Assembly: GCF_021028975.2 (NCBI RefSeq)
Contig: NC_059435.1
Coordinates: forward strand, 24,986,001-25,050,000
Source of the DNA: Sphaerodactylus townsendi
Lineage: Eukaryota
Reading direction: 5' to 3'
DNA: 64,000 nucleotides
Each line of letters opens with the position of its first letter. Position 1 is the stretch's first letter. The notes under the pieces were generated by a model. It searched no databases. It was not told where the DNA came from and was given only the letters and a program-made list of their open reading frames with translations. Positions 6,298 through 55,613 of this stretch are shown here, piece by piece. A program made the translations under genes and the position numbers.

Positions 6298-8751
6298 GGC
6301 CGTTTCCGCACAGGCAGAATATGGCGGCCTGGGGACGGCAAAAACGCTGGGCAGTCCCTCCCAGGCCAGCCATTCACATTAGGCATGACAGCTGCTTCGC
6401 AGCCGTGCCGCGTTTCCTCGCTGCCCTCGACACCGGCGCTTTAGCTGGAGCAAGCTTTCCAAACCACGCTTCCCCAGCGTGGTTTTTTTGAAACGCCGGC
6501 TGGAAGCTGCTGCTGTGCGAATGGCAGCAGCTTCCCAGCACTCCCCCCCACTCCCTCCCTGCACTTACCTCGTCCCTGGGCCTCCGGCACGTCGCTGAGG
6601 CCTGGGGACACGCCCCCTGCCCTGCGACGCAGAAGCAGGCGCGCAGGGCCAGGGGGCGTGTCCCTCAGGCTCCTCGGGCGACGCGGGGTCGGGAGGCCCA
6701 GGGACAGGGACATGCCAGATCGGGCCGGGCGATATGCCCATGGCAGCCGTTGTCCAGGGGCGCATCTAGCAAACTGGCGCTCAGCACAAAACCCTGAGTT
6801 TGGCTCGCCCGTGTATGCGGCCACCCTCCCCCACCATGACCAAACAATTTTTTGTACCAGCTCACAAATCACCTCCCACTCCTATCAAAACATACATGGC
6901 TCTCTACCCACCAACTCTTTTTCCACTTTCCTAATCACAAACTTCAATTCTAAGGAGGTAGGCTGTTAGTCTGAGAAACAATTCCAAGCTAGTGCAAGTG
7001 GGTATTAAGCATGGAAATCTCTCACAAATCACCCCCCAGCAAAACATTTACCAAACAAAATGTCAGCATCATCTCTCACAAAACACCTCCAGTGGAATCC
7101 ACTTTCATTGGTGTTTAAACTAGGGAGCTCGCATCTTTCTTTTAAATTCCACCTTAAAGGGAGAATCTGGGGTCCCTGGTTAAAACAAAATTGAAAGTGA
7201 TGCTTTTGGGAGTGGATTCTCCCCCACCCTGAAACAGCATCACTTTTGAGGGCTGGAGATCCATTTGTTCAGCCATAGATTCGGCTGGAATCTGGACAAA
7301 TTTAAGCACATTCAGACAAAAAAATTGTCTGATTGGCGTCCTTGCCCAAAAATTACCAAAATGCCAATGCAAAGTATTTGCCTTTTGGGGGGTATTTTTG
7401 GTGTTTTTTTCAGCTCGTAGGGAGCGCATTTTTAAAGCTATGGCAATATGATTTCAGGGCATCATCCAGAAAGACTGTCCTGATGATACCACCAATCTTT
7501 GAGTTTGGTAATGTTTACCTTAGGTAGTTAAAGCATGGACCCCTTGGGGAATGCCCCCATCCCCACCGTTTTCAATGGAAGTTAACAGGAGATGGGGGCT
7601 ACCCATTTGAGGGACCATAACTTTGGCTCTGAACATAACTTCACCAAACTTGGGTGGCATCATAAGAATAGCTACTCAGATGATACCCTTGAAACTTTGG
7701 AAAATCACTAGCTTTAAAAATACATCCCTTCCAGGCACCCCAGGAAATTTGCCCAAGATTCTTTTGTTTTGCAGTGACTTTGCTCCATTGTAGCTAATGA
7801 GGAATTTCTTCGAGGCAGGCCTGCACATTTTTGAAGATAGAGGTGCCAGACTTTCAAGGTGACTCCAAGAGGCCTTGAGTAATAGCATCCAATCTTGGTG
7901 AGCTTTGCTTCTGGGTGGGGAGTTGAGAGAGCCTGGAGAGAACCTCAGCCCACAGGCCATGTGCAGGAGCTGGGAAACAAAATAAGTTTCTTTGGGGCCC
8001 ATAAAATTGAACCCCCAGAAGCAAAGGTCTCCAAAACCTGGATGCTACGTGAGGCTTCCCTATAGCCACCCTGAAACTCTGGTGCCTCTATCTTCAAAAA
8101 ACGTGCAGCCTGCCCACACACTTCAGAAATTCCTACTGGGCTACAATGGAGCAAAGACACTGCAAAACCAAGAATCTTGGGCAAATTTCTTGGGGTGCCT
8201 GGAAGGGGTGTATTTTTAAAGCTAGTGACACCAAAATTTCCGGGTATCATCTGGTAACTATTCTTAGGATGCCACCCAAATTTGGTGAAGGCGTTCGAAA
8301 CCAAAGTTATGGTCCCTCAAATGGGTAGACCCCATCTCCTGTTAGCTTCCATTGAAAACAATGGGGATGGGGCACCCCATTTGGGGGTCCATAACTTTGC
8401 ACCCCCTAAACCAAACATCACCAAATTTGGGTGGTATCATCAGGACAGTATCTGGATGATACCCTGAAATTTTGGTGCCGATAGCCTTAAAAATGCGCCC
8501 CCTGCAGGCCGGAACGTGAAAAAACACTTAAAAAATTTAAAAACACACAAACGACCCTGAAATGTTGGCGCCCCCCCACGTGACCAAATGGGGGGCGCCC
8601 GGGGACATAGGGTACCCCCTGTCCCTAGGCAGGAACGCCACTGCCGTTGTCCCAGCTGGTTCTGGGACCGTCCATGCGGATGGTCCCAGCGTCATCGGGT
8701 CGGCGTGAAATGCGCTGACCCAGCCGCTTCCGCCTCCGTGCGGAAACGGCC
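6298..8751. mobile_element. Non-autonomous PIF/Harbinger element (~0.56 kb) interrupted by a nested hAT element
   Basis: Perfect 14-bp TIR ggccgtttccgcac / gtgcggaaacggcc; 3-bp TSD tga at 6295-6297 and 8752-8754. Confidence 0.9.
6755..8643. mobile_element. Non-autonomous hAT element with a large internal palindrome
   Basis: 8-bp TSD ccgttgtc at 6747-6754 and 8644-8651; termini caggggcg / cgccactg; inverted arms at ~7420-7920 and ~8010-8505. Confidence 0.88.
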
Positions 8752-33053: not shown

Positions 33054-33204
33054 GGCCCTTTCCGCACATGCAGAATAATGCACTTTCAATCCACTTTTAA
33101 TGCACTTTGCAGCTGGATTTTACTATGCAGAATAGCAAAATCCACTTGGAAACAATTGTGAAAGTGGATTGAAAGTGCATTATTCTGCATGTGCAGAAGG
33201 GGCC
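33054..33204. mobile_element. Harbinger-type MITE (~150 bp hairpin)
   Basis: Long TIR ggccctttccgcacatgcagaataatgcactttcaatccac / gtggattgaaagtgcattattctgcatgtgcagaaggggcc; same family as 52935. TSD not evident. Confidence 0.8.
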
Positions 33205-34850: not shown

Positions 34851-35648
34851 TGATCTTGCTTCATTCATCTATTTGTTGCAGTTGATACCATCCACTCTAG
34901 ATGGAAGTTCTCTAGGGCCAAGCTTCCGCGACGGATGGCTGCAACACATGACGCCGTGGAACGTAAAGAACCGGGCCATAGCGAGCGCTTCCGCATCGCT
35001 GAAGGGCGGAGGTGCTGCGATTCGCCACTGCCGCTCGAACGCTTAAACCGCGCGCTGAAGACGCCGTGATTCAGAAAAACGCTTTAAACCACTCTTTTTC
35101 CCATGTGACGCGATCTACGCCAGCACTCGTATGTAACAGCCGCCTAGGGAGCCGCCCTCAAACGGCGCTCTGCCAACGACATCTCCGCAGTAGCGCGCCA
35201 TTTTGGGAGGGGATGAACTGCTCCAGCTGCCATGATGGTGAGGGCTGGGGCCGTTTCAAGTTGACAGGAGAGCTCCTCTTCATGGTGGCTTGAGACTCAC
35301 GCAGCCGCTGCAGCTGTGAAGCTGCATGATTGCACAGCTACACACCCTCGACCAAGGCATGGGCGAGATGCGCCTCCGGCAGAGACAATGCCGCCGCCCT
35401 GAATGAGATCATGCATAACGGGACACAAGGGGTGGGAGCCATGGTCTACATTGACACTTCCCTGCGGCTACAATGGGCTGGGGGGAAAGTCCCGTCCGTC
35501 CCATTGTCACCTGAGGGCTTTCTGCCATTGGCCAGGAAGGGAAGTTTGGAGAAACTACCCAGAGACTCTATTGCAGGACGACAATAATCAGACCCCATTG
35601 GCATCAGGTGGATTTTGTATTGAGCCTGTGTGTTGGGCCACCCCAACA

Positions 35649-37450
35649 ATGCCTGGCAATAACAGGGCACATGCTGAGCGCCAAATTCGGGAGAGAGGAG
35701 TCATTGGGAGAGACAGGGTGACCCGTGGACCTTTGGACATATGGGGAGACCCACAGGTGCAGCATTCTCTCACAAGCTAATGGTGCTAACACACAACATA
35801 CACATCTTTCAGCCGGATAGCCCAGCAGATGACAGCTCTGGGCCACCGGCTGACAGCCATTGAGTGCCGCGAATAAAACAAAAGCCATGCGGTATGAATT
35901 CGGCTTGTGCAGTAGCATAACCGAGGGACAGGCAATGAGAGAGCCACCTGTCCCTACTTTGATGAGCTGCAGCTGTGAGTACTGAGAGTGTGGGATGTGA
36001 GCATTCAGCCTGGACGAAAGTGGCAAGAACTCTACACTCCCTGCCAGCCCCATTAGAGGGGCAGAGGGGCAGCACGTCAGCCAAACCAGCACCACAGTGC
36101 CAGTGTGGGAGGACACAATCCAGAGGGGAGGGGACCCTTCTGCTGCTGTGAGGGACCCCTGCACCTGCTAGCAGCCCCAAGTGGACTCAGGGTGAGAGAG
36201 GAGGTTTCACTTCTCCACCTATTAAAACACAAACTGTTATCCCAGAATGGCTGCTCTACCCCTCCCTCTCTGTGAATCCATGAACCATGGGAAGTAGAAG
36301 CCACACTGAATTTCCTACCTGGATCAAGTTGCTCCCCAGAAAGCAATAGCTGGCTCCAGCTGATAAGTGCAAGTATGTGCAGGGCAAGAGGGAGGAATGG
36401 GGTAGGTCAGGGTCACTCACAAGGCTAATTGGTATGGTGCCAGTCTCTGCCTCACAGAGAGGTGGAGCTCCTCTTCCATCCACCACCAACCCCCTTAATG
36501 AAAGTCACTTACTGTGTCCCATAGACATAACTGCTGTCAAGACACAGACCCTGGTGAAGTAACCATGCACACGGGCCACCCCTCAGTTGTCTCTAGGTAA
36601 GGACCACCCCACCTGACTGTAGCCGCAGAGGGGAGGGCTTCCCAAAGTGTGCCTCATAGAAGGCCAAGGCTGAAATGCACTTTGTCCCTCTCTCTGACAG
36701 GAGCCACATCAGAGTCACCCACCCTGGGGGAGGATGAAGACCAGCAGGGGGAGGAGCAACAGAGAGATGAGGAGGGAGATGCTGATTATGGGGAAAGGCC
36801 ACTCAGAAGGCCCCCTCAGCGAGGTAAATCCCCAAAGATGGCTGTATGGGTGGGTCCAGGGAAAGGGGGGGGGGGAATGCAACCAGCCTCCCACCACTGC
36901 ACAGTCCACAGTCCATGCAAGACGGCAGCAGTCTGGAATCACCACCTCCAAGGGCAGAATCCTCAGAGAGGCGACTGCATCCCAAAGCTCGATCATGCCC
37001 TCGGGCGGGTTCAAGTGCGCTGCCTGGGCCAAGGTCATGAAGTTGGAGACCAGTAGCCAGCTGAAGCAGAGAACCAGCAGCAGGCTCAGGTGGCAGCAGA
37101 GCAGGAGGGCGGCATGCGACATTTCTGGACGATGCCGGATCAGTGGAGAGGCTTCTCTCCCTCACAGCAGCGCCTGCACTCCAACAGGCCACCTCCCCAC
37201 AGCAGCCCGCAGACCCATCGAAGCTCATGGCCTGAGTTTTGGACAGAAGTCCCAAGGAGAATGACAGACCTCAGGCTGCAGCAGCAAGGTGACTCCCGTG
37301 TGTGTGTGGGCGCCAAGCACAGCACCGCCCCCCCCCCTCACCTGAGCTCCTCAGCAGCAGCCACCTCCCCGGCAGCCACCACACCCCAAATCCCCAAAGC
37401 GAGGCAGATGTATCGCAGAGGAGGGGCCAGTTGGGCCCCACCTCCAGTTT
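35649..37450 (+). pseudogene. Harbinger Myb/SANT-like (trihelix, MSANTD-like) DNA-binding protein gene, frameshifted, probably multi-exon
   Basis: Across frameshifts 35690-35990 reads RGVI..LDIWGDPQVQHSL..HIFSRIAQQMTALGHRLTAIECR.NKTKAMRYEF..HNRGTGNERATCPYFDELQ. An acidic segment (GEDEDQQGEEQQRDEEGD) follows a ctctctctgacag acceptor at 36700. The start and 3' end are approximate. Confidence 0.88.
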
Positions 37451-37459
37451 CCAGTGGCC

Positions 37460-38720
37460 ACCCACAGCCAGCTCATACATGAGGCAAGCCTTTTCACAGC
37501 CACCTCTCCCTGGGAGGTAGCTTGCCCAATCTTCCCCTGAGCCTCACATGCTGCAGAGTCCTGAGCCACCCACTCTTCAGCCCTTTGTGCAAGGCAAGCA
37601 AGTGCCAGAGGGGAGGGGGGGCGGGCTGCACCCCTCGTTTGCCACAGTGCTCACCCACAGCCAGCTGGAAGGAGCTTGCTCACCCCCTTCCCCCCTTGAG
37701 AGAGTTTCCTCTCACTCGGTAGCCAGCCCATGGAGTAGGTGGCTGCTAAGGCACCCCTGTCTGGAGGCAAGCTTGTGCCCAGAAGAGTGGGGGGGCGGCT
37801 AACGCATTTCTGCCATAGTGCCTACCCAGAGCCAGCTGAAGGGAGCCTCCTCGGACCTCTGCTCGGCCCTCCCCGAGCTCTTTCACTCTGTAGCAGCTCA
37901 TATGGAGGCCTGCTGCTGCACCCCCCCTGCTCGGGAGAGGCAAGCTGGAGCCTGCAGCAGTGGGGCTGCTGGACCCACTTCTGCCACAGTGTCACCCAAG
38001 AGCCAGCTGGAAGGAGCCTTGCCTGACCCCCCCCTTCCCCCTGAGCCCCTTCTACTTACAGCCAGCTTCCATGGAGCTGGCTGCTCCTGCACCCCCCTGC
38101 TTCGAGGCAAGCGAAGCCCAGAAGAGGGGCGCTGCTGGACTCCACTCTCTGCCACAGTGCTCTCCACCCAACAGCCAGCTGAAGGGAGCCTGCTCACCCC
38201 CTTCCCCTGAGCTCTTCACTTGCAGCTGTGCTTCCATGAGCATGGCTGCACCTGCACCTGCCTCAGCTCGAGTGCAAGGAGCCCAGAAGAGAGTGGGCTG
38301 CCATGAGGGACTTCCAGCATCCACTCTGGCTACCCACAGCTAGATGGAGAGGGATGTTTGGCCCCTTCCTTCCTGAGAGTTTTCACCACTCTGTAGCCAG
38401 CCCCTAAGCTGCCTGCTCCCCACCTCCCCCCCCACAAGGTAGGGGAGGCCATGGAGGGGGGTCCACCAAGAAGACTCTCACATGCACTCTTGGTCACCCC
38501 ACAGACAGCTCGTGCAGGAGACAGCTCTGGCCACCTTCTCCTGAGAGCTCCACACACCTGCAGCTTGTTCCTGGACCTCTGCAACACTCTCCTCCCCCTA
38601 CTAAGCAGTATGCTGTTTGCAGAGATGAATCAGCTGGCCCAGCCTCCTCCTTTGCTGGCCACCCACAGCTAGTTGTAGGAGCTAGCCCAGCCCTGTCCCC
38701 TGTCCTTGTTAACACTGCAG
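37460..38720. repeat. Diverged tandem array, ~7-8 units of 164-172 bp
   Basis: The anchor ca(c)agccagctg(g)aagg(g)agc recurs at ~37660, 37831, 38002, 38174, 38339, 38504 and 38668, with a weaker copy at 37467. Confidence 0.85.
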
Positions 38721-40689
38721 CCAGCTCCTGAAGGTAGTCAGCAGCCCTCCCCTAGTGCAAACATCGGGCGAGCTAGTCCCATGAGGTGGTTGGTGTTGCT
38801 ACCCAGCTGCCCTGCAGGTGACAGGGAAACCAAAGGGAGACATGGGCCCGCCTCCCCACCCAAAAGCGAAGCTCGAGCACCCCACCACTCTCAAGGGGTG
38901 GTGTAAGGTGGCAAGGCTAGTCAGCCAAGTAAGCAAGCCAGGGCAAAGGGCAGGGTGATGGGAGAACAATGTGAGGGAGGGGGTGGTTGTGGTGGTGGTC
39001 AGATAATCCCTGTGAGGGCACAGAACTTGAATTAAAATTACCTGTAAGAACCCCACCCTTGCTACTGTTGTTTCTGTTGTGCCACAATGTGAGTGGAAGT
39101 GGGGCTTGTGAGTGGGTGCAGGGGCTGGTGAAGGGCAGGGACATGCTGATCAAGGGGGGTCCAGATTGGTGGCCCTGACATCAATTGTTGCTCCTTTATG
39201 TAACTTTGGCCCACTTTTCCCTTGACAGAGGGAAAAATGGCAATGGATCTGTGTTGTGCTTGTAAGGTGTCAAAGGTGTTATGAGTTTCATGCTTCTTGG
39301 GCCTGCACTCCATTGTGTATCGGTCAGCATGCAAGGGAGGGGAGGGAGGGAGAGTCCCCACCCACCAGGCCACAGTGAATCACTGCACCATGCACAAGGG
39401 GCTGCTGTCTTGTGGGAAGGCTGGACACAGTGTAGGGTGAGGGGAGAACTCCTGTAAAGAGATGGTGGGTGTGGCAGTAGCAGTGGCATCCCTTGGTGGC
39501 CAGTGATCTGGATGGAAAGGTGTCTATGGGATTTCCACCCTGCCTAGTGTGGTTTGCAAACCCCCCCCCCCCCACTGGATGTGGAACATGTGACTGAGCA
39601 CTGGGGCTGGTGTGCTGCAGGGACACAAAGATGAGCCTACTGTGAATGATTGAATAACTTTATTGAGAAAACATTAACAACACAGTGATAATTCTACAAC
39701 ACGCCCTGATTCCCTCCCCCACAGGCCCAGTGCAGACTCCTCCCCACCCAACAACAGTGCAGTAGCCCCTCGCCAACTCCCAACAACAAGCCCCCCACAC
39801 ACCCTCTACCCTGACCCACAACAAATCCCCTGCTCTCTCCAAAACCCGCAGTGCTGCAGACCCCCCCCCCACACATCATGGACTCCCCTAGGAATGCTTC
39901 CCTCCCCCCCACAAGCATTGTTCTGTGGCAACAGTGCCTATTAGTGGCAACAACCTGGGCCAATATCCCAAAGATGCCATGCCATCGAACCCCCTTCAGT
40001 CCTGAGTTGCCCCTGCTCAGCTACTAGGGTGTGTTCTCTGAGCTAGAGGGCAGATCTGCAAGGTGTGGGGCAGGGCCACCCCACTCACCGTATGCAGGCA
40101 AGCACCTGGCACTGAGGATGGTGTACTGACAGCCATGGTGCTGGCTGCCTCCTGCTCCGACATCAAGGATGGGGAACCCCCCCCCCCGCATTCCTGTTCA
40201 AAACTCCAGCCACACCTTTGTGTGTTTTTCAATTGTTGTCGTACTTAGTTGGTATTTGGCCTGCAGTGGATGCATTGTTTGGCCTAGCAGCACTAAACTT
40301 TCAGGTGTTGGTCGGGGGAGTCTCCTGATGTTCCCACCCAGGTTTTGTGTGGTGTGGTCCAGGGGCTCCAACGGGTAATGCGACTCCCAAATTGGGTGTG
40401 CCCCCATCCCCCCATTGTTGCCACTCGGGGAGCTGTGGAAGATGGTGTGCTACACCTTTTGAGGGATCCATGCATAAATTGGGACCCCCTGAACTGAACT
40501 GCACCAAACCTGGGTAGTATCATCATGAGAGTCCCGCACTAATTGGCTGAAAGTTTGATGCTGCTAGGTTAACCAGTGCAGCCCTTGACAGCAGCCACCC
40601 TCTAATTTTTTCCAGATTATCCTTTCAGATCCACCCCCTTTGGCATGGATTTACAGGGATACTCTGAGGTCCTAAATTTAGACAAAGAG

Positions 40690-41280
40690 GAGTAGTGTGG
40701 ATCTGAATCTCCCCCCCCCCCGCCTCTCCTGTAGGAGGCTCAGTGCGGCTTACATTCTCCTTGCCCTTCCCCCCTCACAGCAAACACCACCTGTGAGGCT
40801 TGGCTTCATGCCAGAGATTTGCAAAAATCGCTGGTGACTAGGGCAAGGTTACCCAGCTGGCGTTTGTGGGACTACACAGGCTTCTTTGATTTCCCCAGCT
40901 GAGCCTCCACAGCTCAAGCGGCAGAGCACAAAATCAAGGCAGGGTCCTGCATATTAGAATGCACGCTGTTTCCAACCACTATGTGTCACATGGAGAATGG
41001 TGGTGCTGCTTCAGGGTAGATGATCCATTAAACAGCATCACTGTCACTGTTGTGTAACCAAGGGACCTCAGATTCTCCCCTGTAAGGTAGTGACCTAGTT
41101 TCTTTACAAACCATTGACATTGACAGTGCTGCTGTGGGGTGGGATTCCTGCATCACAGCGGCTGTCCCGGGGGAGGGGGGGAGGGGGGTGGGGGCAAAAA
41201 TCAGCTTCTGCACCACGCTCCATTTCCCCTCCATGCCTCAGGGCAGAGGGCAGGGGCAGGGGAGGCCAGGGCAGGGAAGC
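40690..41280. repeat. Internal SINE+flank module, copy A (most diverged)
   Basis: Reversed SINE, then ggtgctgcttcagggtag, agggacctcagattctcccctgtaaggt and gggcag repeats, in the same order as 48848-49420. Confidence 0.55.
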
Positions 41281-41399
41281 TCCCCAGGCCACTCAGTATG
41301 TCACCCCTGCATGCTAAGTGCAGCAGGCATCAGGATCAGGCTGAGCCATCGGCACTTCATGGCCTAGCCAGGGCCACCCTCCCCCCCACGGTGCCGTGG

Positions 41400-43385
41400 C
41401 CAGCTCTTGAATAGATACTCAGCCAGCCAGGCTCCTCTGGACGGCTCTGCCCCTCCCTCGCCTCTGTGTGCATCATCCTGGGGGGGGGTTGTATGGACGG
41501 CCACGTGGAGGATCTGGCTGCTTCTTCCTGCTGGTGTGCTTCTTCTTCAGCTTGTGTGGGATTGAGCGAATCTGCTCATTGGGGAGATCTGGAGCTATGT
41601 GGCTACTGGCTCTCACATTGTGGCTGTGCAGGTGCACCACACATGCCGCTTATAATTGAGGTGGCATTCTCGGGTCTGACCCACAGAGGGTTGAGAGAAT
41701 GCATCTCCACCGTGCCTCTTCAGGCCAAAATGCACGCCTCCACCCACGCTTCTTTGCATGGGACAGGATGTGAGTTGGAAGTTTCGCTGTTGCCATGCTG
41801 GCACAAGCGAAACCACGGCAGGTGTGAGCAGCCACTATGGCGCCAGGTGGGCTATAGAAAGCACCATCCCCAATACCACAGGGGGGGTATGGACAATAAT
41901 TCATTGATTGTCAGCATGGGCCTCTGCAGGCAAGTAGATGCCCATGTCCATGGCTTCTGACAGAAGTGCGTTTCAATGAAACACAAATGCACTCATTGTT
42001 AAGCACCAGAGTAGCTTGCCTCAGTTTTTCATTGGATAAAACATTCTCGCGTCAGCTGCTACAGAAGCTGCTGTGCAGGAGTTTGGAGGAAACGCGTTTT
42101 TCGATTAATGTGCTGACCCGGGTGCTCCACCCGGGTGACAGATCCGATGTGACACTCCATCCACAGCCCCAATGCAGTGTGTGGAAAGCCAAGGGCGGCA
42201 AAACCAGCCATCACCCTGTAGGGGAAACAGACATTGGTACATAGGTTGGGGAGGTTGGCCAGTACAGGGAGGGGTGATCTGCAGCTGCTGTGTAGTTGCA
42301 TTGACATAAGCATGGGAACACACACACCCTCTGGGTCCCCTTGCCACTGCCGGCACCTTCACCTGGTCCATCGGCCTCAAGCATCGCATCTCAGTCACCT
42401 TTGGGTATAGTAATTTCCGGCACTTCTACAGCTATGGCAAACTCCAGGACACTGTTTGCCACAGTGGCCAGTCCCACTCCAAACTGTTGGCCCACTTCAC
42501 GAAGTAGCTGTTGGCACTTCTGCTAGGTACCCATACAAGGCCATGGCTACTGCTTTTAGCATGGGAAATGGCATGGACGAGCATTTGTGTCTTGTCGTTT
42601 CCAAGTGTGGACGCAGGGCTTCTAAGCGAGGTAAATGGTTGCTGCCTTTGGCCATCCTGAAAGTTTCCTGCAGCCACTCCCTCATCTGTCCTTCAGACTG
42701 TCATTAGAAGCTACATCCCACCAGGTGTGGCTCTGGGGACCTATCCAATGGCGGGGTGTTGGGAGTACTCATGTAGCAAAACCAGCCAGCGAATATTGTG
42801 CTTCTACGTACGTCAATGGTAAGCGCCAGTGGTGTCAGATTTGAGTCACTAGCTCCTTCTCGGCAGGATCGACGGGTGTAGCCTCCCTCAGCCAGCCAGT
42901 CAGATCAGCTGCCCTCTGCGTCATGAAGGTGTTCGTGGGTGAGGTATGGCGGGCACCTGCTCCTGCTCATCGTGGTAGTACTTTCCTGCCGTGACACCAC
43001 CTCTCCTAGATCCATGTCTCACTATGCAGACAGCAGCTAGCTGCACGGTTCCCTGGTTCCACTCTGGAAACGGAATGGAGACTGGGGAGGGAGGGGGGCT
43101 TGTAATCACATGATTGGGGACCTGGACCAGCCCTGCAGAATAGCTGCTCTCAGCCAATCAGGCTCTGCTTGATGTTCAGACGCCAGTCTGCCACAACTTT
43201 GTGAGGTGTGTAGCCCGGACATTGTGGGCGGGCAAAACATGCAGCATCCGCGAGCGCTTTTGTTCTCCTGATGGCAGCAGCGTTAAACTGTCAGGGATTG
43301 CTACGGTGACTCTCATAATGATAATGACTGGATTTGCTAAGGTTTGCCCTTCTGTGGGCCACAATTCCCGTATGGACTGCAACAC
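41400..43385 (-). pseudogene. Harbinger (HARBI1-like) DDE transposase, heavily frameshifted
   Basis: Ordered motifs across frameshifts: RHWIGPQSHTWWD; WLQETFRM..EALRPHL; AVAMALY.YLA; EVGQQFGVGLATVANSVLEFAIAV; GFAALGFPHCIGAVDG (D at ~42160); HINRK; IGDGA (~41866); LSHA..VE.AF..ARWRC; ACVV.H.N; EGRAV..LA.YLF. The 5' boundary is approximate. Confidence 0.92.
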
Positions 43386-44149
43386 ATGTACTCACCATCC
43401 CCTACAGTGTCAAATGGGATTTCAGATAAGATAGGGACTGCACCTTTGAGGGTATCCATTACTGGGGAGTCCATGACACAAACCTAATCAAATTGGTGCA
43501 GCTCCCCTTAGTGAGAGTATTCTGCATATACCATCTTCCAGGGTTGTAATTCCAGCTGACCAATTGCACCTCTGACAGCAGGTACAACTCTGAAAATCTC
43601 CATGTTCATGTATTACATCCAGTCATGGATGTAATGTGAGGATTTCAGTTCCTCAGCTTAGCAGAAGAAGAGATAGGATTCACCCTCCCTCTCCCACAGA
43701 GGATCCAAACAGACTGGCAATCTCCTAGTCCTGCTTCTGTCCCACCCCTGGGTGAGGGTGGGAGGCAGTGATGAGAGACCTGGAGATAATCTGTATAGCC
43801 TGGTCACACCATTGCTACCCCTGTGTGGGTGTGGACAGGCTGAGCTGATTTCCCCACATACACATGTGCAGTGCAGTCACGTTGTCTGGGAGCAGAAACA
43901 TGTTTCTAAGCATTGTAATGCCCCTGCTCTGAAACACTGCATCACTTTGGCAGCGTTCCCTTTGCTTTCCCGCCACCCCCCATTCCCCTGTAAGTGCAGT
44001 GCAACTGCACCTCAGAGGAGGGGCTGAGGGTCTGTTTTCTCAACGCTGCCCACCCACAGCCAGATGAAGGAGGGATGTTTGGGTCCCATCCCTGAGCCTT
44101 CACCCCGCAGCTGAAGTGCTGAGCTGACCAATCCACCATGCACATGGGC

Positions 44150-44600
44150 ATCCAATCACCTTTCCCTTCCTCCCCCCTGCCACAACAAACACCCCTGTGA
44201 GGTGGGAGGGGCCATAGAGAGCCCGAGGAACTATGCACCAGTCTGTTGGGATACCCAGCTGGGTGTGCCCTGGAGTGCAACTGGCTACTGTGAACCATCC
44301 AGACAAGTATGTACAGCTCTTGTCAGCATAGCACTAAAACCACTGAAGCTGTCACTGTGGCAGTGATGATCAGGGTGGGGATGAGCTTACATCCCCTGCA
44401 AATAACACCATGTCCATGTTGTGCTGTCTAGAGCAATGGGATTGTCCCTTCCTGGTGGCGTTACTGTAGGAGTTGGGACTGTCCAGGTAATATAATACTG
44501 CCAAAGTTGATGCCTGAGGTGGACCTGAGCAACAGCATCAGCTGTCAGGGAGAGGGGCAGGGGCAGGGCAGAGCAGGGCAGGGCAGGGCAGGCATTCTGC
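44150..44600. repeat. Internal SINE+flank module, copy B
   Basis: Reversed SINE body, then cagggtgggg..ggagttgggactgtccag..ggtggacctgagcaacagc..(gggca)n; direct repeat of 48900-49380. Confidence 0.7.
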
Positions 44601-44789
44601 CTCTCCTTTGCCTGTAAGACAGATGCCTGGCTGAAGGAGTGGTGCCAGGGTAGAACTGTGAAGAGCATGTAGCCACACCATTTGAAAGCTGTCAGACAGC
44701 CCCCCCCCTTCAGGGTGTTTCTGGCAGAATCTTCGCGCCATGGACAATGCACCTTTCAGATCCTCCTGCTCATGCAGATAGTGGCTGCC

Positions 44790-45375
44790 TCCATACGCCA
44801 GCTCCTAAAAAAAAAAACATCACTCTGCTGGCAGGGGAGTGGAGACTGCCCTGCCCTGCCCTGCTCCCTCCCCCCCCCTGGTAGCAGCTGTGTTGCTGCA
44901 GGCCACCCCTCAAACAGCATTTTCTCACTGACAATGGTGTGTCAACTGGTAGAGTCTGAACCTCCACTCAAGGCCACCTGTAGGGAAAAAATCCCATGTC
45001 CCCAGGTAGCAACATGTGGGATTGATGCTGCTCTAGGAATGTGTTACATTCCCACCCTGACATACAGCATCAATGGTAAAGTGGGATAAGTTGTGCTGCA
45101 GAAAGCATGGGTATCTCCGAAACGTGGAGGAACAGGTGTCTGTTCCCTGCTAACTTGATGGAGCTGCACATGTATCTGGGACATGCAGCTTCTGCTGAGC
45201 AATCCCACGCATGCCAGCTGGGTGACCTTGGCCCATACACGTTTCCCTCTCTGCTCCCTTCAGTAACCACCTTCCCTCACAGGGGTCTGTTGTGAGGGGG
45301 GAAGGGCAATATCAGCCCCCGAGCCTCCCCTGCAGGACATGAAACTATGTTCATACATAACCAATTCTTCTTCTT
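44790..45375. repeat. Internal SINE+flank module, copy C (inverted)
   Basis: The reverse complement aligns by eye along its length with 48848-49420 (gttagcagggaacaga, gggtggcctgcagcaaca, ttttaggagctggc). Confidence 0.85.
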
Positions 45376-48300
45376 ATATGGGCTAGATTGTACTGCTACA
45401 CTGCCTATTGCTGTAAGATTTCCAGATCTAGGGTAGGCATGTTCTGGGATGTGGAATGTTGTTCCAGGAACAACATACAAAACAAACCAATGCTTGCCCA
45501 TCATGGGGAGGTCTACTGCCCATGGGGTGGCAAAACCATGTTTGGCTGATACGCACTGGGTGTGGCTGCTGGGAGGGTGCGTTATGCCAGCCACACGAAA
45601 TTCGCCAAATGCAGGCCTTTGGGCTGGCCTGTCTGCCTAGGGACGGCACTGCCGTCTCCCCCCCACAACGTGAAATGGATGTGGGATTATGTGATTGAGC
45701 AGTGAGGCTGGTGTGGGTGGGACACAAAGTTAGGGGATACCTGTGACTGCTTCTAAAAATTTTTGTATTCTGCAAAACATTGAAACACTGAACACCCCCT
45801 GCAAGCCCTCCCAGACCCTCCCCCCCTGGCCCAGCCATGCAAACCCCCCAGAACTCCTGCAACCCCAACAAGCCCCAGACTCTCCTTGCAGGCCCACAAA
45901 CTTAACTCCCCACTAAGAACTCCCAGTAACTCCCAGCAAGTTTCAGAGACCCTCCCCCAGGCCTGGCCAGTCTAACTCCCACCAAGAACTCCCCCCCAAC
46001 TCCCAGCAAGCCGCTAGGACCCTCCCCCCGAAGTCCACCTTAAAACTTCCCCAAGCAATGCTCCCCCAACAAGGCACTGCTCAATACAATTGTCAGCCAG
46101 CCCAACACTCCTGGCTATCACGCACTGCCGCTTCACCAACCCCACGAGTCCACAGTTGCCGTGAGGCTAGCTGTCAGGGTGGGTCCTCCGAAAGCTGGAG
46201 GGCAGACCGGGTTGTGTGGGGCAGGGCTGACCCCACCTTCAGGGTGTGCTTCTGGGGTAACCTGGCGCTGATGAGAGAGGGACTGGCAGCCAAGGTGCTG
46301 GCTGCCTGGTCTGACAGCACTGCGCTGTGGGAAGTGGGCTGAGGAGGGGTGCCAGGTGTTGGCGGTAATCGGCATGCCACCAGGCGCTGCAGCCAAGTGC
46401 ACACAAAGGTAGTTGCCGGGTGTCCTTCTGCCCCGTCGCCACCAAGTGCAGACAGTCAGCCGGGCCCATGATGAAAAGTCAGCCGGCTTCCATGCAGCCC
46501 TGCGGTGAGAAGAGAGCAGGAACATTAGCAGTCACGCCAAGCGCCACTGATGCCTGCCAGCAGCTGCTGACTATGATCATTCCCACCACCCCATGTGGCT
46601 GACCTTGTTTGACCACCCACAAAGCAGGCTGGTGGTGCACTTCACAAGTGGGGAGCACACCACTTCCACTCCTACACCCAGGTGGCAGAATTCTAGCCCA
46701 AAATTGGTGCATGCAGCTTGTCTGTTCCTGTACTTGCATTGTGGGTCTGGTAGGCTGAACACCTGCCAGCTGCATCCTTGCAGGCCCCATACCTGCAGGC
46801 TGCAGGGCAGCTAAAGGCTGACCGGCTGTACCCGGCTGGGCCCATGCTATGGGCCTCCCTGCCAGGCCAGACCAAGGAGCAGGTGTAGTATGGATTCCCG
46901 GAGCTTCCGGCACGAGCCAACCCTGCCAGGCTGACCGGTAGGCTGACTCCAGGGAAGGCAATCTACCGGGCTCACAGCTGGACTGGTCTAGTCTGGCAGC
47001 TCTTCCCCCAAGCTCATCTGCCTGGCCTAGTGGGGCAGGTGCCGCCCAGCCTTATGGCTGGGGCAAATGGTAACACAGGCCAATATACACAGTGTTCCTC
47101 TGTAATGTTTGATGCCAGAAATTTCTTATGAAGCTCCAAGTGTTTTTTCCTGCATATGGTCCCTAAATGACTATTTGGCCTATCAAGGTTTCCCAACGTG
47201 AGATCTTGTAATTCTACACATCTGGCTCAAGCAGGAGTACTTTGAGGAGATGGCAGCTGTGGCAATGCTGCCAGTCCAGAATTATCCTGGGGATCAGAAA
47301 GCAGACTCCATGCAAATCCAGCACCCCAAAGCAGAAATGGTGCAGGGGGGCCCACTGGTCCACCCCACAGCCCGTACAATCTGGCCAAAGGTGTGCATGT
47401 GCAGCTGTGGGTCACCGCCCAGTGCTGTGCACTGCCACACACAAATCCACAGCAACCCATCACTCGACTTCCACATGCACGCTTGCCTACCAGCATCCTG
47501 GCATGGGTATTGATGGCCTGGGAGGCTGCCCTGCTGCAGCCTCCCATGGAGGGAAGCGGAGGAGCTGTGGCGGCTGCGCAGGGGCTCCACTCCGCTTCTG
47601 CCGGGCGCTGACGTGGGCTTGAATCGGACGAAGTCCCTCCAGGTCCCTGCCAGTCAGCTTCGTCCGTGGGCTCCCTCGGCGGCGCTGAAGGGCTGCCACG
47701 AAAGTCACGCATGGTAATAACAAAACCAACACCCAGCCTCCGGCGAGACCCCAACGTAGACATGGCTGGCCACATCTCATGTGCTACCTGCCCAGCCAGC
47801 GAAGTGGGCAATATCGCTGCGATCACCTTCTGCGCCGACATCGGTCCACCCCAACCCGGGCTCCCAGCCTACGCTGGGCGACATGGCAGCTGGCGATGGG
47901 CTAAACGCGGGGGCAGTCAGAGCCACGCAGGGTGGCTCTCCACCTTCCAAGCGGTGGCAGTGAAGAAGTCCCTCTTGAGGCTCTTTCCCCACTTGGTGCA
48001 GGCCTGCACCCCAGCGCGGTGGGAAGCCTGCAACCTTGGGAGTGTCTCCTTGCCACCGCTAGCTGGAACCGCTGTCCACATTGGGTAGTCCCGCTGGCTA
48101 AGGTGAGAGGGAGGCAGGGCGTGTCTGGCTGCTGTCCCCTGATTAAAAGCGGGAGGAGGGGATGGTGACCTCCTCCCGCCTGCCAGTAGACTCCCACCGC
48201 CTGGGTGCAATCATGGCCTACACGGGAAATGGCTGGGAAAAGCGAAGGGACCTCTCTATAAAAGTGCAGATCTGGCCCCTGTAGCACTGGGTCGATTTGA

Positions 48301-48847
48301 AGCCAACGGATCGCCCAAGGGCGACGCATGCTCTCAGAGGGGAACCCCTTTTGAAATCACTCCGCCATGCGGGGACGCTGTGGGTCGCGAGCTCCCATGG
48401 TAACCGCCATTGGCAAGACCATGAGGCGAGACAGGTCTTCTCGGCTTGTACGCACCCCTGTTTCCCAAAAATAGTGACACACACACACCACTATAAGCAG
48501 TTTGCAGAAACTTTCCTTTGCACTTAGTACAGCCAAGGGTGTGGACGCCCCACAGATTAATGCAGCACCAGGCCCCACTCTCATACTCGCATTCTGAGCA
48601 GCAGCCAGAGATCAGGCTGCCCCCCCAATGCTTCGGGTCAGGGGATGGCAGCAACTCCCACCCTTCCAGCACTGTGGGGCCAGCTCCTTGAACAGGACCC
48701 AGCTAGGCATTCTCTGACAGCTTCCAAGCACCCTCTCAGCCTGTGGTGGGTGTCAAGCTGGGGTTCCACAGATGCCCATGTGGTGGCACAGCTGCATCTT
48801 CCTGATGCTGCCCTGCTTCTTCAGTATAGCAGTATGACCTATCAATG

Positions 48848-49420
48848 GAAGAAGAAGAGTATGGATTTAAATCCCCCCTTTCTCTCCTGCAGGAGACTCA
48901 AAGGGGCTTACAATCTCCTTGCCCTTCCCCCCTTACAACAAACCTCCTGTGAGGAAGGTGGTGCTGAGAGACCACAGAGAGGCTGTGTATGGCCCAAGGT
49001 CACCCAGCTGGCATGTGTGGGAGTGCTCAGCTGAAGCTGCATTTCACAGATACGCATGTCCAGCTCAGTCATGTTAGCAGGGAACAGAAACCTGTTGCTC
49101 AGTTTTGGAATGGCCATGCTCTCAAACACACAATCAATTTGCCACTGATGCTGTTGCAGGGTGGGGTGAAATGCATCCCTAGGCAGCAGCAATGTTCATT
49201 TTTTCCTCCATGGGGACATGGAATTATGACTGTCAGGTGGTCTTAGTGGAGGAGTTTGGACTCTCCAGTTGGACAATAATGGGCCACCTGTCAGATATGC
49301 TATTTGATATAGGGTGGCCTGCAGCAACAACAGCAGCCGCCAGGTGGGCAGGGCAGGGCAGGGCAGGGCAGGGGAGTTCACCCTTCCCGCCAGCAGCAGT
49401 GCGATGTTTTTAGGAGCTGG
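48848..49420. repeat. Internal SINE+flank module, copy D
   Basis: Reversed SINE from gaagaagaagag at 48848, followed by the shared flank ending ttttaggagctggc. Confidence 0.85.
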
Positions 49421-51029
49421 CCCAGGGTTGTTTCAGCCACGGATGGTCACACCTTTACTAGAAGCTTTGAGAAAGTTTGCACCCCCCTCTAAAAGTGTGT
49501 CTCCACATTTTCACTGGAATGGGCAAGCACCTTCCCAAGATCCATGGTGGCTGCATACAGATGGTGGCTGGGCCAAGGCTACATAGCCGGGTGTCACAGG
49601 TGACATGAACTGGGACTCTGACAGTAGCTGGGAGGGGAGCCGATGACAAATGGGGGTGGCTAAAACTTCAGGGTAGTCACTTTGGCCAATCGCTGCTGCG
49701 CTGGCTGATCGCCGCCTTTGCTTCGCCAGCCTGTATGTTTCCGCGAGTCACGTTAACGAGCGTAGCGTAGCGAAAGACGCCGCTTACGCCAGAGCAACCT
49801 ACGGCGAATCGATTATCTATGGCAATGCGACGCGTAAGAAATTCCGCTACTTCGTCTGTGCGTAACGCTTTTCTCAGAGCGCGTCGGCAATTCGCGCACG
49901 GCCATCGCTAAGCCGCTCGCGCGTGGAACGGCGGAAACGGCCTAGGAAAGGAGACCAGCCAATGCCTGCATCATCCCAGCTGCCCTCTCCTGTTCTGCTA
50001 GTGCATAGGCTGTTGCTTCTCACCAGCTTTTTGATTCTCTGCTAGCTTACTCACTGGTCTTTTGTCTTCCTCCTTTGCTCAAGGAGGAGTGGATTAAATA
50101 CATTGCTGGTCAGTGGTGTTCCATTCCTTCAAGGTCATCTTTGTAAGCATCTAGCTAGGTTGGTAAAATTGCTAACCTACCAGGAGGTTGTGAACAGTTC
50201 AAATTCAAACTTTGCAAAATCACAATGGAATATGCCTAGCTAAGTGGACTGCAGTTGCTACTTGTGGATAGAGTAAAATATTCTGATTGTTCGGAGTAAT
50301 GCTATAATATTTTGGAAACTTTTCTGTGATAGTTGTATAGCCAGCAGTAAGAACAGAAATTGGTGCCAATAGTATAGTGAAACAAATGAGCTAGTACAAA
50401 AAAATTGTACTTATCTAAATGTAAGTCATTTGGAAGGCACTGAAAACTTAATTTGCCAAAGTAGTATTCATGCAAGACATGCTGAAGTCAACCTGAACAC
50501 CTTGAATGGGCCACTTTCTATACAGAAGTCAAGAAAGGCAAGAATGTTAGAATACATGAAAAGTATACCAGTAGAAGCTCAGTTCAAATGTCACCACATA
50601 GTTACTTTCCCTTGAAGATCTGGTTTTGATTATGTGGATGTTTACCACACCATTATCAGTGACCTTGATAGTGATGGGATCTTGTTATCGTACATGCCTA
50701 AACCAATTATGAAAAGGTAGAATATAACACTGTCTTAATTTAAACATACAGGTTTGGATCCAGAAATCTTTGCTGCAGGCAAAAAAAGAAAGGAGAGGGT
50801 CTTGTTTGACCACCCAAAAAGTGTATTCTGAAAATCACAAGGCCTACATCTACAAAAACCAAACGTGGTAAGGCTGTAGTAGGCAGGAAAACAGGATGAA
50901 ATTAAATTTAAAAATCTGACTGAATTCAGGCCATGTAGTGTTTCAAGATCATTATATCCATATTTATAGATTGAGTCTTTATATGCATTATAGTTACTTT
51001 TGGGTAACCACTGATACTTTTCCTCTGTT

Positions 51030-51841
51030 GTGACATTTTGTGGATGCAGTTAGGAAAAAAAGCATTTGGATTGGGAAAAAGTGCCTGGATTGTGGACCAT
51101 TAAATAGATTAAATACTGTTTGGGTGGGGAGGGGGATTATAAGTAGGGAGTGTGTTTAGCTGCATATGCGGAACTGGAAAAAGCAAGAAAAAGCTGGATA
51201 AAGTTGAAAGTCAACTTTCTGGCCTGGATTTCTTTCAGAATGCCTGGATTTCTTCCTTTCATGCCCACAAAAGAGCATAAAGGGAAGTCTGGTGCCATCA
51301 GAGCCCATTCCAGACAGAACTTTGTGAGAGATCAGTGCAAAGCTTGGCCTTAATTGGTGCTCCTCCCTTTCAGTTTCTGGTCCTTTGACTGCTGCAACCC
51401 TTGGATTACTGCTGCCTGCCTGCTATCTGGACAAGAAGACGTTGAATGGTTTTAAATTGTCATGACCCTCTCTATGTTAGCTCAGCTCCTGCCATCCTTC
51501 TTGTTATTGGGGCCTCCTTGGACTTTTGTCCTGGGAACATGGAAAAAAGAATTCCCAAGCAAGTATGTTATCTGCTTTTGGAATGTCTATGTCTGTGTGA
51601 CCTTCCTCTGCCCTCTTTCCATTTGGCCTCCCTCCTTTCTGGGAAGTGTGTGTGTGTGTGCGTGTGTGTAGTGTCTGCGGGGAGAGGATCAAATATATTT
51701 CTGCTGGGAATTTATAATCTTTTGTTTGTAGGAGTCTGACCAGTTCAGACAATAGAGCTATTCCCATGTTTGTTATCAATAAAACAAGAATTCTACTCTT
51801 AAAGTACTGATTCCTGTCTGAGCAAGTCTGGGACTGTGACA
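51030..51841 (+). mobile_element. Possible solo LTR
   Basis: tgtgaca...tgtgaca ends (TG..CA), a TATA-like cataaa at ~51276 and aataaa at 51778 near the end. No TSD found. Confidence 0.3.
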
Positions 51842-52934
51842 GAAACAACTAGTTTATTTTCTAAATTATTTGGTTTTTGTAAAGTGTGCCTGTAGAACAT
51901 TTTTTTCCTTTGGCCTGCATGGGTGGAGCCTCTGGGCCAATGGAGGCCTAAAGGCCCTTCAGTTGCCTTGAGTTCAGTTTGGTTTCCATGTTTGTTTCAA
52001 GTTGATTAAAGGGTTTGTTTGTTTGGCTTATGTGAGAGCAGATCTACTGGTGTTTTTTTAATTCAGAGCTGGTTTTCTTGGGTGTTGTTTGTGGGAGAGG
52101 GGTGTTCCTTCACCCCTTCTTTCTTCTTTCTTGAAAACACTTGTCTTTTGATGTGGGACAAGGGCAAGGCAGGCCAGAAATCCTTCTGAGGCCTGAAGGA
52201 CTGATTGGTTGTATTCTCTTTTTTGTGAGGTTCTTCCTGTGACTTGGCAGCTTAGTTGGTTAGTTGCAGACTCTTCTGTTTGCCCTATAACTTGATTTCT
52301 TATCCTCTATCCCTATCCCCCCAGTGTGATTGCACCAAGCAGTGTGACAACTGGCCAACTCACTTTGCTTGCTGAGTGTTTTGTTCTTGAAAACTTGTAA
52401 AACTGTTAGATTGTAGTGGAAAAAAAACCCCTGAGTTTTAAGAATTATCATTTTTAGAATTGTTGTTAGATTGAGGTTCAGTTACAGAGAAATTACTGGA
52501 TTTGGCTAGATTTTGCATGTTGTCCTTTGTGCAGGACACATGTGTTAACTATCCCATGTATCTTAATAAAGCTGAAAAAACAGGGCTGTCTAATAACTGT
52601 GTGATTCTTTTCCAAATGAGTCTCCTCCCTCACTGCAAGGTTTAGAAGATACGCTGAAATGTTTCCAAGTGATTTGGAAGAGAATGTTGTTGGTCCACAG
52701 TGGCATACCAAAATGTCTGAGCCAAGGGCAGACCAAAAGGCCAAGTGCTTCTTTGGGTGAACATCTCATCTATTGACAGCTCTTGTCAACATTTCTTCAA
52801 AGACCAGACCACGCTGGTCTGCTGGGTGGTCTTGCTCTAGTTCCCAGGGCAACAATATCTTTTTCTCCCCAGAAAGACCACTCCCACCATCAGCACTGAG
52901 TATCTGAATAAGTTTAATCAACTTTACTAACAAA

Positions 52935-53075
52935 GGCTCATTCCGCACATGCAGAATAATGCACTTTCAAACTGCTTTCAGTGCTCTTTGAAGCTGTGCG
53001 GAATAGCAAAATCCACTTGCAAACAGTTGTGAAAGTCGCTTGAAAATGCATTATTTTGCGTGTGCGGAAGGAACC
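52935..53075. mobile_element. Harbinger-type MITE
   Basis: TIR ggctcattccgcac / gtgcggaaggaacc, 3-bp TSD aaa; homologous to 33054-33204. Confidence 0.85.
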
Positions 53076-53969
53076 AAAGCCTGGTGCATGGACCAGCCAG
53101 AAAAAAAATGTCACATCAGGAGTCTTTCTTTGTGTTCTCTTTCCACTTATTTGGCCATTGTGTGTTTCCTGAGAGCTGGTGGCATCCAGAAATGAAAGAC
53201 ACTATAATTATTTTCAACCTCATGTTTCGTCACTACCTGCAGCTTTTCCAGAGGCTGCAAAGTCTTCTGTAGTAACCAGGTTGTGTATTTCATTATCCAT
53301 CCATCATTCAAAGCAAAAAGGCTTCCTTGAAGAATTATGACACTCAGTTCTCACTATAACGTTATATATTGTGATAGAGTTTTTTTTCTGCACCCTGATG
53401 AAAAAAGAGATCAGTCATCCAAGGCCTGGAAGGTAATTACGGATGAGTGATGCCTGTTGTTCTGCTATGCTAACGATACACTGTAGTAGAATCTGCAGTA
53501 GTATCTTACAGCTACCGCTCAGTGGTGCTTATCAGCAGTGTAGCTCACCCATCAAAAAGTACTTAGAGGGGGGGAAAATCTTCCTTAGTGAGAGAAGGCA
53601 ATATCAAAACAGGAATGAATCTTATTGATTCAATCTCTACCACTCATAATATACTCTAAATATATTATTTATGCTTCAATTTGAGATGAGAGCATTACAA
53701 AGAGCGACATTTCACCTAGCACATTAAAGTAGAATTAGAGGCCTGGAAAAAAAACCGTCTGCAATATATGTAACCTTGTAAATGTAGCCCTCTGCTGGAT
53801 CCTTTTTATCCACGAGGAATTGTGGTTGAGAAACAAAAGAACATAAGGTGAAAGAGATCAGAGATGTGTTTTCTTATTGGGAAAAAAATATTCAAAACAG
53901 GTGGCTTTGGTCACCCGAAGTAACCACAGAATAAATGTGATAGAGGCAAAATTAATTTTCCTCCATCAC

Positions 53970-54470
53970 ACAGAATCATAGAGTTGGAAGAGACCGCAAG
54001 GGTCATCTAGTCCAACCTCCTGCGACGCAGTTACACACCATCAAAGCACTCCCTACTGATGGCCATTCAGTTTCTGTTTAAAAACCTCCAAAACACCACC
54101 CTTCGAGGCAGCATATTGCATGGTTGAATAGCCCTTACCATCAGGAAGTTCTTCCTAATGTTTAGGTAGTATCTTTTTTGCCCCTCATAGCTTGAATCCA
54201 TTTCTCTGTGTCCTAGTCTCTGGAGCAGCAGAAAACAAGCTTGTGCCATCATCAATATGACATTCCTTAAAATATTTAAACATGGCTATCCTGTTTTGAT
54301 TGCTCTCCCCTGAACACTCTCCAGCTTGTCAATATCGTTCTTGAATGTTGGTGCCCAGAACTGTACACAGCACTCCAGGTGAGATTTGTCCAACTCAGAA
54401 TAGAGTGGTACTATTACTTCCCTTGGCCTAGACACTATATTCCTACTGATTAAGCCCAGAATTGCATCAG
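53970..54470 (-). mobile_element. CR1 LINE 3' fragment
   Basis: agaatcatagagttggaagagacc..tctagtccaacc tail; the minus ORF reads YYLNIRKNFLMVRAIQPCNMLPRRVV, the CR1 ORF2 C-terminus. Confidence 0.88.
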
Positions 54471-55613
54471 TGACCTGAGCTCTGAATACATCATCTTATG
54501 GAAGGTGTATGCAGCTCTTCTCTTCATGCAAGATCCACAAAGGTCCATTCAAGAAGTCATCATTCATGCTTCTTCCACTGTCAGGCTGGAGAAATATCTG
54601 AAGCCAATCTCAGCTGCAGGCCTCACAGCACCTCAGGCTGCCCATAGGCCAGTCATAGAATAGCTGATGAAGCTCACACATAATTGCTAGCCTGCAGCCA
54701 CAGAGGCTGATATAGTAACTGGGACAGTGAAGTGTATCAGGCATTCTTCAATGGTTTTCATCTTTTTGATATCATTTATTTATATCGGATGCCTATTTAT
54801 CTTGTTTGCTCCCTTGGCTAGCTTTTCCACTTAAACACCACAACATATTTCTCTGAATTTCTGCTTTATAACAAATCTTAGTGGATTCTGGTACTTTTTG
54901 AAAAGCAAATGATGTGTGTTTGCCTCCATGCGCAAACACATGTTGTGTAATAACAACGATATATGCAGCAAAGCCTACCTCACGGTGCTCTTAAAATCTC
55001 CATCAGATTCAGTGAAGATTAGATTCACCTCATGGACAATCAGCCTAGCCATAGCTTTCCACATGGGTGCAATGAGGCATATATTAGAACCACTAGCCAT
55101 AGTGGGTGTTTCGGCACATGGGCAGTTCATGTCCCAGGCGCAGTTTCCCCTCCCTTCGTCACTGGGTTGGATCCAATCAACTTCTTTGCTGGTACAGAAA
55201 GCCACGGCCCCACCAGCTGCTGTGGCTCATCTCCACTTGATCTCCATTGGTGGTAGCCAGGGCACCCTGCCACACACTCCCCCTCCCCCCACTCAACCGG
55301 AACTGGTTGTTAAATTATTTGAATCCCACCACTGGCTACATCATCTGGCAGTGAGTTTCATGCCAACCAATTTTATCAGTAAATACATCCAACAATAATT
55401 TCTATTGGTCTCAGTGAGAAGCACATTTCTCTCTTCCTATTGTCAGGGATAACTTTCTCACTCAGATGATACTCCCCAATTCCAGACAAATAAGAGAAAG
55501 CATCCTTCCTTCTGTGGCAAGTATAATTTGTACTAGCAGAGTAGGCTCAGGGAGGCATGAATTCCACTCCTTCCCCAGGAATCTCTAGTTGGGGTAGCCG
55601 CCTGGATATGTAG

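Follow-up and report, generated by a model that had tools for sequence, protein, structure and literature searches.

A second Myb/SANT gene, Myb2, in a lineage of Harbinger transposons of the gecko Sphaerodactylus townsendi

The literature describes Harbinger transposons as two-gene systems, with single-gene derivatives and with three-gene forms that carry SET or TET genes (PMC9179366, PMC4482050, PMC9392472, PMC12730594, PMC9710019, PMC8437027, PMC5741667, PMC13668399). A Harbinger with more than one Myb gene was not found in the literature searched; Repbase lay outside that search, so prior annotation is possible. The element analyzed here lies in a stretch of 64,000 nucleotides of the Sphaerodactylus townsendi genome (assembly GCF_021028975.2, contig NC_059435.1, positions 24,986,001 to 25,050,000; "the window", in whose numbering positions are given below), and it carries, in addition to a transposase gene and a canonical Myb partner gene (Myb1), a second Myb/SANT (PF13837) gene which we call Myb2. 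Myb2 has four exons and occupies positions 48214-46174 of the minus strand. The explanation that we consider likely is that it is a four-exon gene of a three-gene Harbinger lineage, kept by purifying selection, whose product is predicted to self-associate and probably serves as a DNA-binding protein that regulates the promoters or ends of the element. Its identity, exon structure, selection, family grouping with the other two genes, and position inside pairs of terminal inverted repeats (TIRs) and of target-site duplications (TSDs) can hardly be doubted.

Six copies, that of the window and its siblings, align over the whole Myb2 region. In the intact sibling C4a (L030) the first exon is open and matches PF13837 with an expect value (E) of 5.8e-13 (49.5 bits against a cut-off of 27; L030:3467-3808), and when its three introns, all GT-AG and phase 1, are spliced out, the four exons give the RefSeq protein XP_048350018.1 letter for letter. 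This gecko protein of 315 amino acids is labelled uncharacterised, and its record is a prediction and not proof of expression. A sequence-only reading of the window had proposed a third, spliced, minus-strand gene inside the Harbinger, possibly chromatin-related and of a family that could not be assigned; the intact sibling confirms the gene, its Myb/SANT match agrees with a chromatin- or DNA-related nature, and the family is PF13837. When the sibling's Myb2 domain is searched against the window by tblastn, exon 1 is found with E 1.3e-5; this exon is 343 nucleotides long in the intact sibling and 388 in the window, where it contains 17 small insertions. Substitutions are in excess at third codon positions in exon 2 (103, versus 65 and 56 at the other positions) and in exon 4 (147 versus 68 and 62). 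From promoter to 3' region, the gene is laid out in the window as follows:

48255-48300, minus strand: putative Myb2 promoter region (judged from sequence only), with a TATA-like box and the site at which siblings retain a CCAAT box.
47827-48214, minus strand: exon 1, with the start codon and the whole Myb/SANT domain (mapped from the sibling).
47491-47710, minus strand: exon 2, a low-complexity linker, whose donor is the gtaggc site of the sequence-only reading (six-copy alignment).
47218-47286, minus strand: exon 3, closing with a short H-C-x-C motif and the first part of a coiled coil (six-copy alignment).
46709-47204, no strand assigned: unrelated interspersed repeat within intron 3, which holds the second exon block of the sequence-only reading.
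46174-46499, minus strand: exon 4, with the RhxxhE coiled coil, a Ser/Pro tail and the stop; its acceptor is the third acceptor of the sequence-only reading.
45719-45807, minus strand: 3' region homologous to an AATAAA-bearing block of the intact sibling, presumably used for poly(A) addition.

In 23 of 48 Myb2-type loci a CCAAT box precedes the domain by 72-78 nucleotides. Contigs from DNA runs are continuous through the Myb2 introns and have no spliced joints, and they are silent on expression.

The exon model of the sequence-only reading fared less well. It had three GC-rich blocks (about 48457-47491, 47057-46793 and 46499-46237) bounded by AG acceptors and GT donors. The blocks are indeed GC-rich (0.63-0.65), block 1 does keep its CpGs (observed/expected ratio 0.61 versus 0.16 in the flank at 50000-55000), and the open reading frames 47917-48210 and 47227-47868 do share one frame with two stops between them; that frame passes through Myb2 introns 1 and 2. 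All six dinucleotides are present in the window, but in the six-copy alignment only two are splice sites, namely the donor after 47491 and the acceptor before 46499 (each in 6/6 copies). At 48457 AG is found in 4/6 copies, at a place upstream of both promoter and start codon. The 47057 acceptor occurs in 2/6 copies and the 46793 donor in 1/6, and the 46237 donor falls within the last coding exon, while the true donor at 47826, the acceptor at about 47710 and all of exon 3 were missing from that model. Block 2 is not an exon: it is missing from three of four outgroup copies, its substitutions are flat by codon position (17/15/16) where exons 2 and 4 have their third-position excess, and it sits in the intron-3 repeat at 46709-47204, an unclassified sequence of about 490 bp with hundreds of candidates in the genome (at least 72 matches from the best 40 of 819 candidates scored). 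The three Cys/His-rich peptides from which possible metal binding had been deduced can all be read in the window, but none is coding in frame; CSECEY lies in non-coding spacer, GCWFCYYH in the acceptor tract of intron 1, and DCLHL out of frame in exon 4. Metal binding deduced from these peptides is wrong. The H-C-x-C motif that precedes the coiled coil in the window family is absent from the peptides quoted.

Myb2 accompanies the other two genes in many elements. Searching the gecko's own genome with the Myb2 protein gave at least 150 matches (best 150 of 348 candidates scored), and transposase, Myb1 and a Myb2-type gene stand together in 20 of 39 Myb2-centred loci. The order in 16 of those 20 is Tp>Myb2><Myb1 (where Tp is transposase), and in the other 4 the extra gene is reversed; a few of the 39 have two extra Myb genes. 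An automatic TIR search, which counted only pairs with a matching 3-bp TSD, was unsuccessful for most of 27 loci; TIRs with a 3-bp TSD surround all three genes in six copies (C4a, C3_85319k, C2_86194k, C3_57283k, C3_154400k and C8_43525k). Unrearranged relatives have one transposase, Myb2 and Myb1 within a single TIR/TSD pair of 7-14 kb. Among 123 transposase-centred loci (from 127 matches), 62 have a Myb2-type match within 10 kb and 48 have one on the same strand no more than 4 kb downstream, where 0.0016 per locus is expected by chance.

In the tree, Myb1 domains (20 rows) separate from Myb2-type ones as two clades with 100/100 support, and Myb2 lies outside the Myb1 clade of the very same elements, so it is not of the canonical Myb1 type. 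A recent within-family duplication that would have given rise to Myb1 and Myb2 was rejected when the window-family pair was constrained together (approximately unbiased test, p-AU 5e-6). The trees of Myb1, Myb2 and transposase have four family groups in common, and the Myb1 and Myb2 distances among 14 elements are correlated (Mantel r 0.42, p 0.003; kin are not independent). The ratio of nonsynonymous to synonymous substitution (dN/dS), one of the checks that the sequence-only reading had named, has a median of 0.14 for Myb2 in the window family (45/45 pairs of 10 copies, with 59% of changes at third positions). Across families it is 0.25 for the 476 of 990 pairs that were usable (in the other 514, dS was saturated or too small or there were too few codons); C3_3846k, C3_7230k and C1_77952k, which have no transposase or Myb1 nearby, are outside this comparison. 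The Myb1 control values are 0.30 within the window family and 0.27 across families. Selected and part of many families, Myb2 is an integral gene of the element and not cargo; the idea that it is a decayed cargo gene is doubtful on this account and also because damage in the window copy has the profile of sequence error (below).

A Myb2 profile search gave 140 representatives at E<=1e-10. Twenty of them include leopard gecko, Gekko, Sceloporus, Rhineura, Elgaria and tuatara, as well as three caecilians, axolotl, tailed frog, coelacanth and koala (as protein records). One branch of the Myb2 clade is a conserved, unnamed host gene of birds, turtle, alligator lizard, marsupials, amphibians and perhaps coelacanth (P0012-P0031, P0055, P0082, P0093, P0117), with 100/100 support (85/92 in a tree without the coelacanth) and about 40-44% identity to Myb2 in the domain. 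Read-through isoforms suggest that its first intron lies at the same codon as that of Myb2. An orthologue of this gene was not found in the gecko's own genome among the best 131 of 245 candidates scored, which does not imply loss, and placental mammals have no match among the named host-gene records. We regard the unnamed tetrapod gene as a candidate for an unreported domestication.

Other Myb2-type genes were encountered in the same genome. A further Myb2-clade gene, "Myb3", lies on the opposite strand in several elements (L028, which is the C12 copy, L032-L035, L040, L045, L094-L095, L132-L133), at times back to back with Myb2, so that there are up to three Myb genes per element. The locus C8_34703k (C8:34.69-34.71 Mb) is a 9.8-kb, TIR/TSD-bounded element with Myb1 and Myb2 in which no transposase was detected. 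Myb2-type matches cluster at C10:81.14-81.36 Mb, C6:11.47-11.64 Mb and C1:189.5 Mb, which are possibly arrays or insertion hot spots. Some Myb2-type domains that have no transposase nearby lie in gecko and tuatara proteins labelled KRAB/SCAN-like (L140-L141, L164-L165; P0036, P0096), a possible case of host recruitment.

PF13837, the Myb/SANT-like trihelix domain, is the only Pfam match of the Myb2 protein (P0001), which has neither the SET nor the TET/JBP domain of HarbingerS and PHISTA. Residues 12-102 are modelled with confidence as a helical domain (predicted local distance difference test, pLDDT, 69-96), and the model further has a disordered linker and a helix at residues 201-231. The best structure matches are to Myb-type domains and are of middling quality, with Sap1 first (Z 8.5, root-mean-square deviation 4.0, 93 aligned) and GT-1 at Z 6.1. 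Foldseek, which the sequence-only reading had suggested as a route to the family, gave no match at E<=0.001 against the PDB, and the ESM Atlas gave Myb-family leads only, all under 0.9. The C-terminal coiled coil of P0001 carries two RhxxhE motifs in heptad register; RhxxhE is a trimerisation motif of coiled coils (PMC5940361). The motif is present in 23/46 non-host homologues and 0/25 host-type ones (2.6 expected over all 71), and a stricter genomic coiled-coil pattern stands behind 16/48 Myb2-type domains and 0/20 Myb1 domains. When three copies of residues 192-236 were modelled together, the score was 0.54 versus 0.02 for the best control, with at least 71% of contacts common to the runs and pLDDT at least 64; in calibration on two-copy cases that score was reached by 21/30 solved homo-pairs and 0/23 single chains (animals 7/16). 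The three-copy result may reflect memory of solved coiled coils. The Myb2 product of about 315 residues is thus predicted to self-associate via its C-terminal coiled coil.

The remaining parts of the element in the window are these:

34916-49942, no strand assigned: the whole Harbinger, 15,027 bp; its TIRs begin with GGCC, and its TSD is TAG (34913-34915 and 49943-49945).
41357-43019, minus strand: transposase gene of two exons (43019-42362 and 42214-41357), mapped from the sibling.
35649-38971, plus strand: canonical Myb1 gene, with its first exon at about 35649-36189 and its last at about 36923-38971.
48678-48822, minus strand: remnant of the 3' end of a transposase, which lies before Myb2 and has a paralogue at 41396-41548.
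40024-40168, minus strand: what is left, downstream of the transposase, of the original Myb2 copy's 3' end.

Searching the gecko's genome at the DNA level gave 25 matches from 21 candidates; ten sibling regions were retrieved, and the element is collinear with copy C2a across 15 kb. The sibling transposase matches PF13359 (DDE_Tnp_4, E 2.2e-28) and the sibling Myb1 matches PF13837 (E 1.9e-18). The element is thus a PIF/Harbinger (PHIS) by its DDE_Tnp_4 transposase, separate Myb/SANT partner gene, short TIRs and 3-bp TSD; the canonical number of only two genes does not apply, there being three or four genes within one TIR pair. The last Myb1 exon contains a tandem repeat of about 171 bp (37450-38400) whose copy number differs among siblings. 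Elsewhere in the window are a 2.4-kb non-autonomous element (6298-8751) with the same TIRs as the Harbinger and the TSD TGA, and two short palindromic elements (33049-33204 and 52930-53076) that resemble miniature inverted-repeat transposable elements.

The gene order of the window copy is rearranged. With a transposase tail before Myb2, a Myb2 tail after the transposase, and a copy, C15, that retains both Myb2 genes, tandem duplication fits. Very probably the element was duplicated in tandem and complementary deletions then left the transposase tail and Myb2 first, and the transposase, Myb2 tail and Myb1 second.

Most of the breaks in the window's Myb2 are, we think with good reason, assembly errors in a young insertion. 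Small indels in the window copy number about 3.5 per 100 bp, and in its coding parts insertions exceed deletions by a factor of 7-13; the window and three siblings mostly have 2.7-3.8 (range 1.2-3.8), whereas four copies of equal substitution distance have 0-0.4. The insertions are mostly private, and tandem duplications make up 5 of 42. On the unique flank, the contigs listed for four DNA runs differ from the window at 0, 0, 2 and 15 places, yet across 46000-47600 each contig piece listed takes 12-24 gaps to align with it; in three runs, long contigs align with the intact sibling at a cost of 0-1 gaps. Stretches that the contigs leave uncovered carry no weight here. Among the contigs listed, the flank contig ends at the element edge (49942) in 4/4 runs, as at an empty site, which suggests a young or polymorphic insertion, and the Harbinger in the window is probably young. 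These observations speak against the alternative that the copy is truly old and decayed by insertion-biased mutation, which is unlikely and would leave the identity of the gene unchanged. In its favour, the four aligned exons differ by substitution at 19-31% of positions from those of the intact sibling, and an exact match to the window may exist beyond the contigs listed.

A number of points weigh against reading Myb2 as the regulator of a three-gene lineage. Four noisy copies, the window's among them, yield no Myb2 domain free of frameshifts and therefore stand outside the tree, in which the deep branching between families is without resolution and kin are non-independent. The 39 Myb2-centred loci, 20 kb each, were picked for having Myb2, and both the Myb2 and the transposase match lists are lower bounds seeded from the window family. 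No Myb2-type match is listed at 61/123 transposase loci, and a sensitive profile found Myb2 in 0/20 transposase loci picked for lacking it. Four of these have a Myb1-like gene, and one is a copy of the family, 97% identical, that has Myb1 but no Myb2. Accordingly, Myb2 is the mark of a lineage and not of every Harbinger in the genome. The coiled-coil pattern is seen behind only 16 of the 48 domains, the complex model speaks for self-association and not for a number of chains, and the DNA target, partner and expression proposed for Myb2 are putative. In a fuller form of the explanation, Myb2 would be transcribed from its own CCAAT/TATA promoter and would oligomerise to bind repeated sites in element DNA, acting in trans so that the element's genes stay expressed, and Myb1 would retain its known job of escorting the transposase; this chain as a whole is a tentative proposal, somewhat less likely than not. 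The VANDAL regulator of plant MuDR elements is reportedly a sequence-specific anti-silencing factor. A bolder proposal makes Myb2 its counterpart, an oligomeric, sequence-specific anti-silencing factor that would keep CpG-rich promoters active in a lineage of three- to four-gene Harbingers of the same age as the lobe-finned vertebrates, the coelacanth-to-marsupial gene being its domesticated form; taken together these claims are improbable.

Next after a regulator of expression or silencing, Myb2 could be a second structural subunit of the transpososome, which would bind subterminal or target DNA, or Myb1 or the transposase, and be needed for cut-and-paste in this lineage. We think this rather improbable, since Myb2 is without the long helical tail of Myb1, which we take to be the transposase-binding region, and Harbinger loci without Myb2 exist in the same genome. 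Two genes are also enough in known Harbingers (PMC9179366). That a canonical Myb protein binds transposase and TIRs (PMC9179366), that Myb2 groups like the transposase in trees and is selected as strongly as Myb1, and that one Myb2 copy was retained through the rearrangement of the window family are all in keeping with a subunit. That Myb2 is the usual Myb partner of another Harbinger, which nested into this element or fused with it, might be suspected from the transposase tail ahead of Myb2 and from the duplicated internal blocks of the element; that tail, however, is paralogous to the transposase of the element itself, and the unrearranged relatives have their three genes in one TIR/TSD pair, which makes this very improbable. 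Capture of the tetrapod host gene as a neutral passenger fares little differently and is, if anything, harder to credit: the Myb2 dN/dS of 0.14 contradicts neutrality, Myb2 is retained across families that are only 30-55% identical, and the host gene has no conserved coiled coil, even though it falls in the same clade with the domain identity given above and an intron apparently at the same codon, and its orthologue was not found in the gecko. The three-exon Cys/His metal-binding cargo gene of the sequence-only reading is almost certainly wrong. Its peptides and splice dinucleotides are there in the window; four of its six splice sites are false, its middle exon is a repeat, and none of 11 window frames reaches a Pfam cut-off. 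The sibling alignment refutes it.

An anciently separate second Myb/SANT gene that selection has kept in divergent families implies a function not yet recognised in the biology of vertebrate DNA transposons. With intact and probably young Myb2 copies at hand, that function should be testable by a standard transposition assay. The Myb2 lineage, which departs from the two-gene description of Harbingers, is also a likely source of the uncharacterised tetrapod gene and of the Myb domains of reptile KRAB/SCAN proteins. Finally, apparent repeat "decay" in this assembly can be sequence error.

The window lineage is like the canonical PIF/Harbinger transposons (PMC9179366, PMC9710019) in its DDE_Tnp_4 transposase, Myb/SANT partner, short TIRs, 3-bp TSD and co-evolving genes, and differs from them in having a second (in some copies a third) Myb/SANT gene from a separate clade. 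Its elements are 7-15 kb long, compared with averages of about 4-5 kb (PMC4482050). It resembles the NuwaII group of PHIS (PMC4482050) in that its TIRs begin with GG and a C at -4 flanks the target in 26/31 ends; the NuwaII target is C|TNA|G, whereas TNA lies directly outside in only 12/31 ends here, so its target preference is NuwaII-like but looser. NuwaII is described with two open reading frames, and the likeness is judged from TIRs and target. HarbingerS (with SET) and PHISTA (with TET/JBP and a non-Myb protein; PMC12730594) likewise have a third, accessory gene whose role may lie in chromatin, but they are oomycete and rust-fungus elements whose accessory genes encode enzymes, while here a non-enzymatic Myb/SANT protein is found in a vertebrate. 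The VANDAL regulator (PMC12730594) is possibly a parallel as an element-encoded, sequence-specific regulator of its own element's silencing; no homology with Myb2 is expected, and an anti-silencing role for Myb2 would be an analogy only. MSANTD1-4 and NAIF1 (PMC9392472) are, like the single conserved host gene in the Myb2 clade, Harbinger-linked Myb/SANT proteins; Myb2, in contrast, is still mobile, and its host relative is labelled uncharacterised and not MSANTD.

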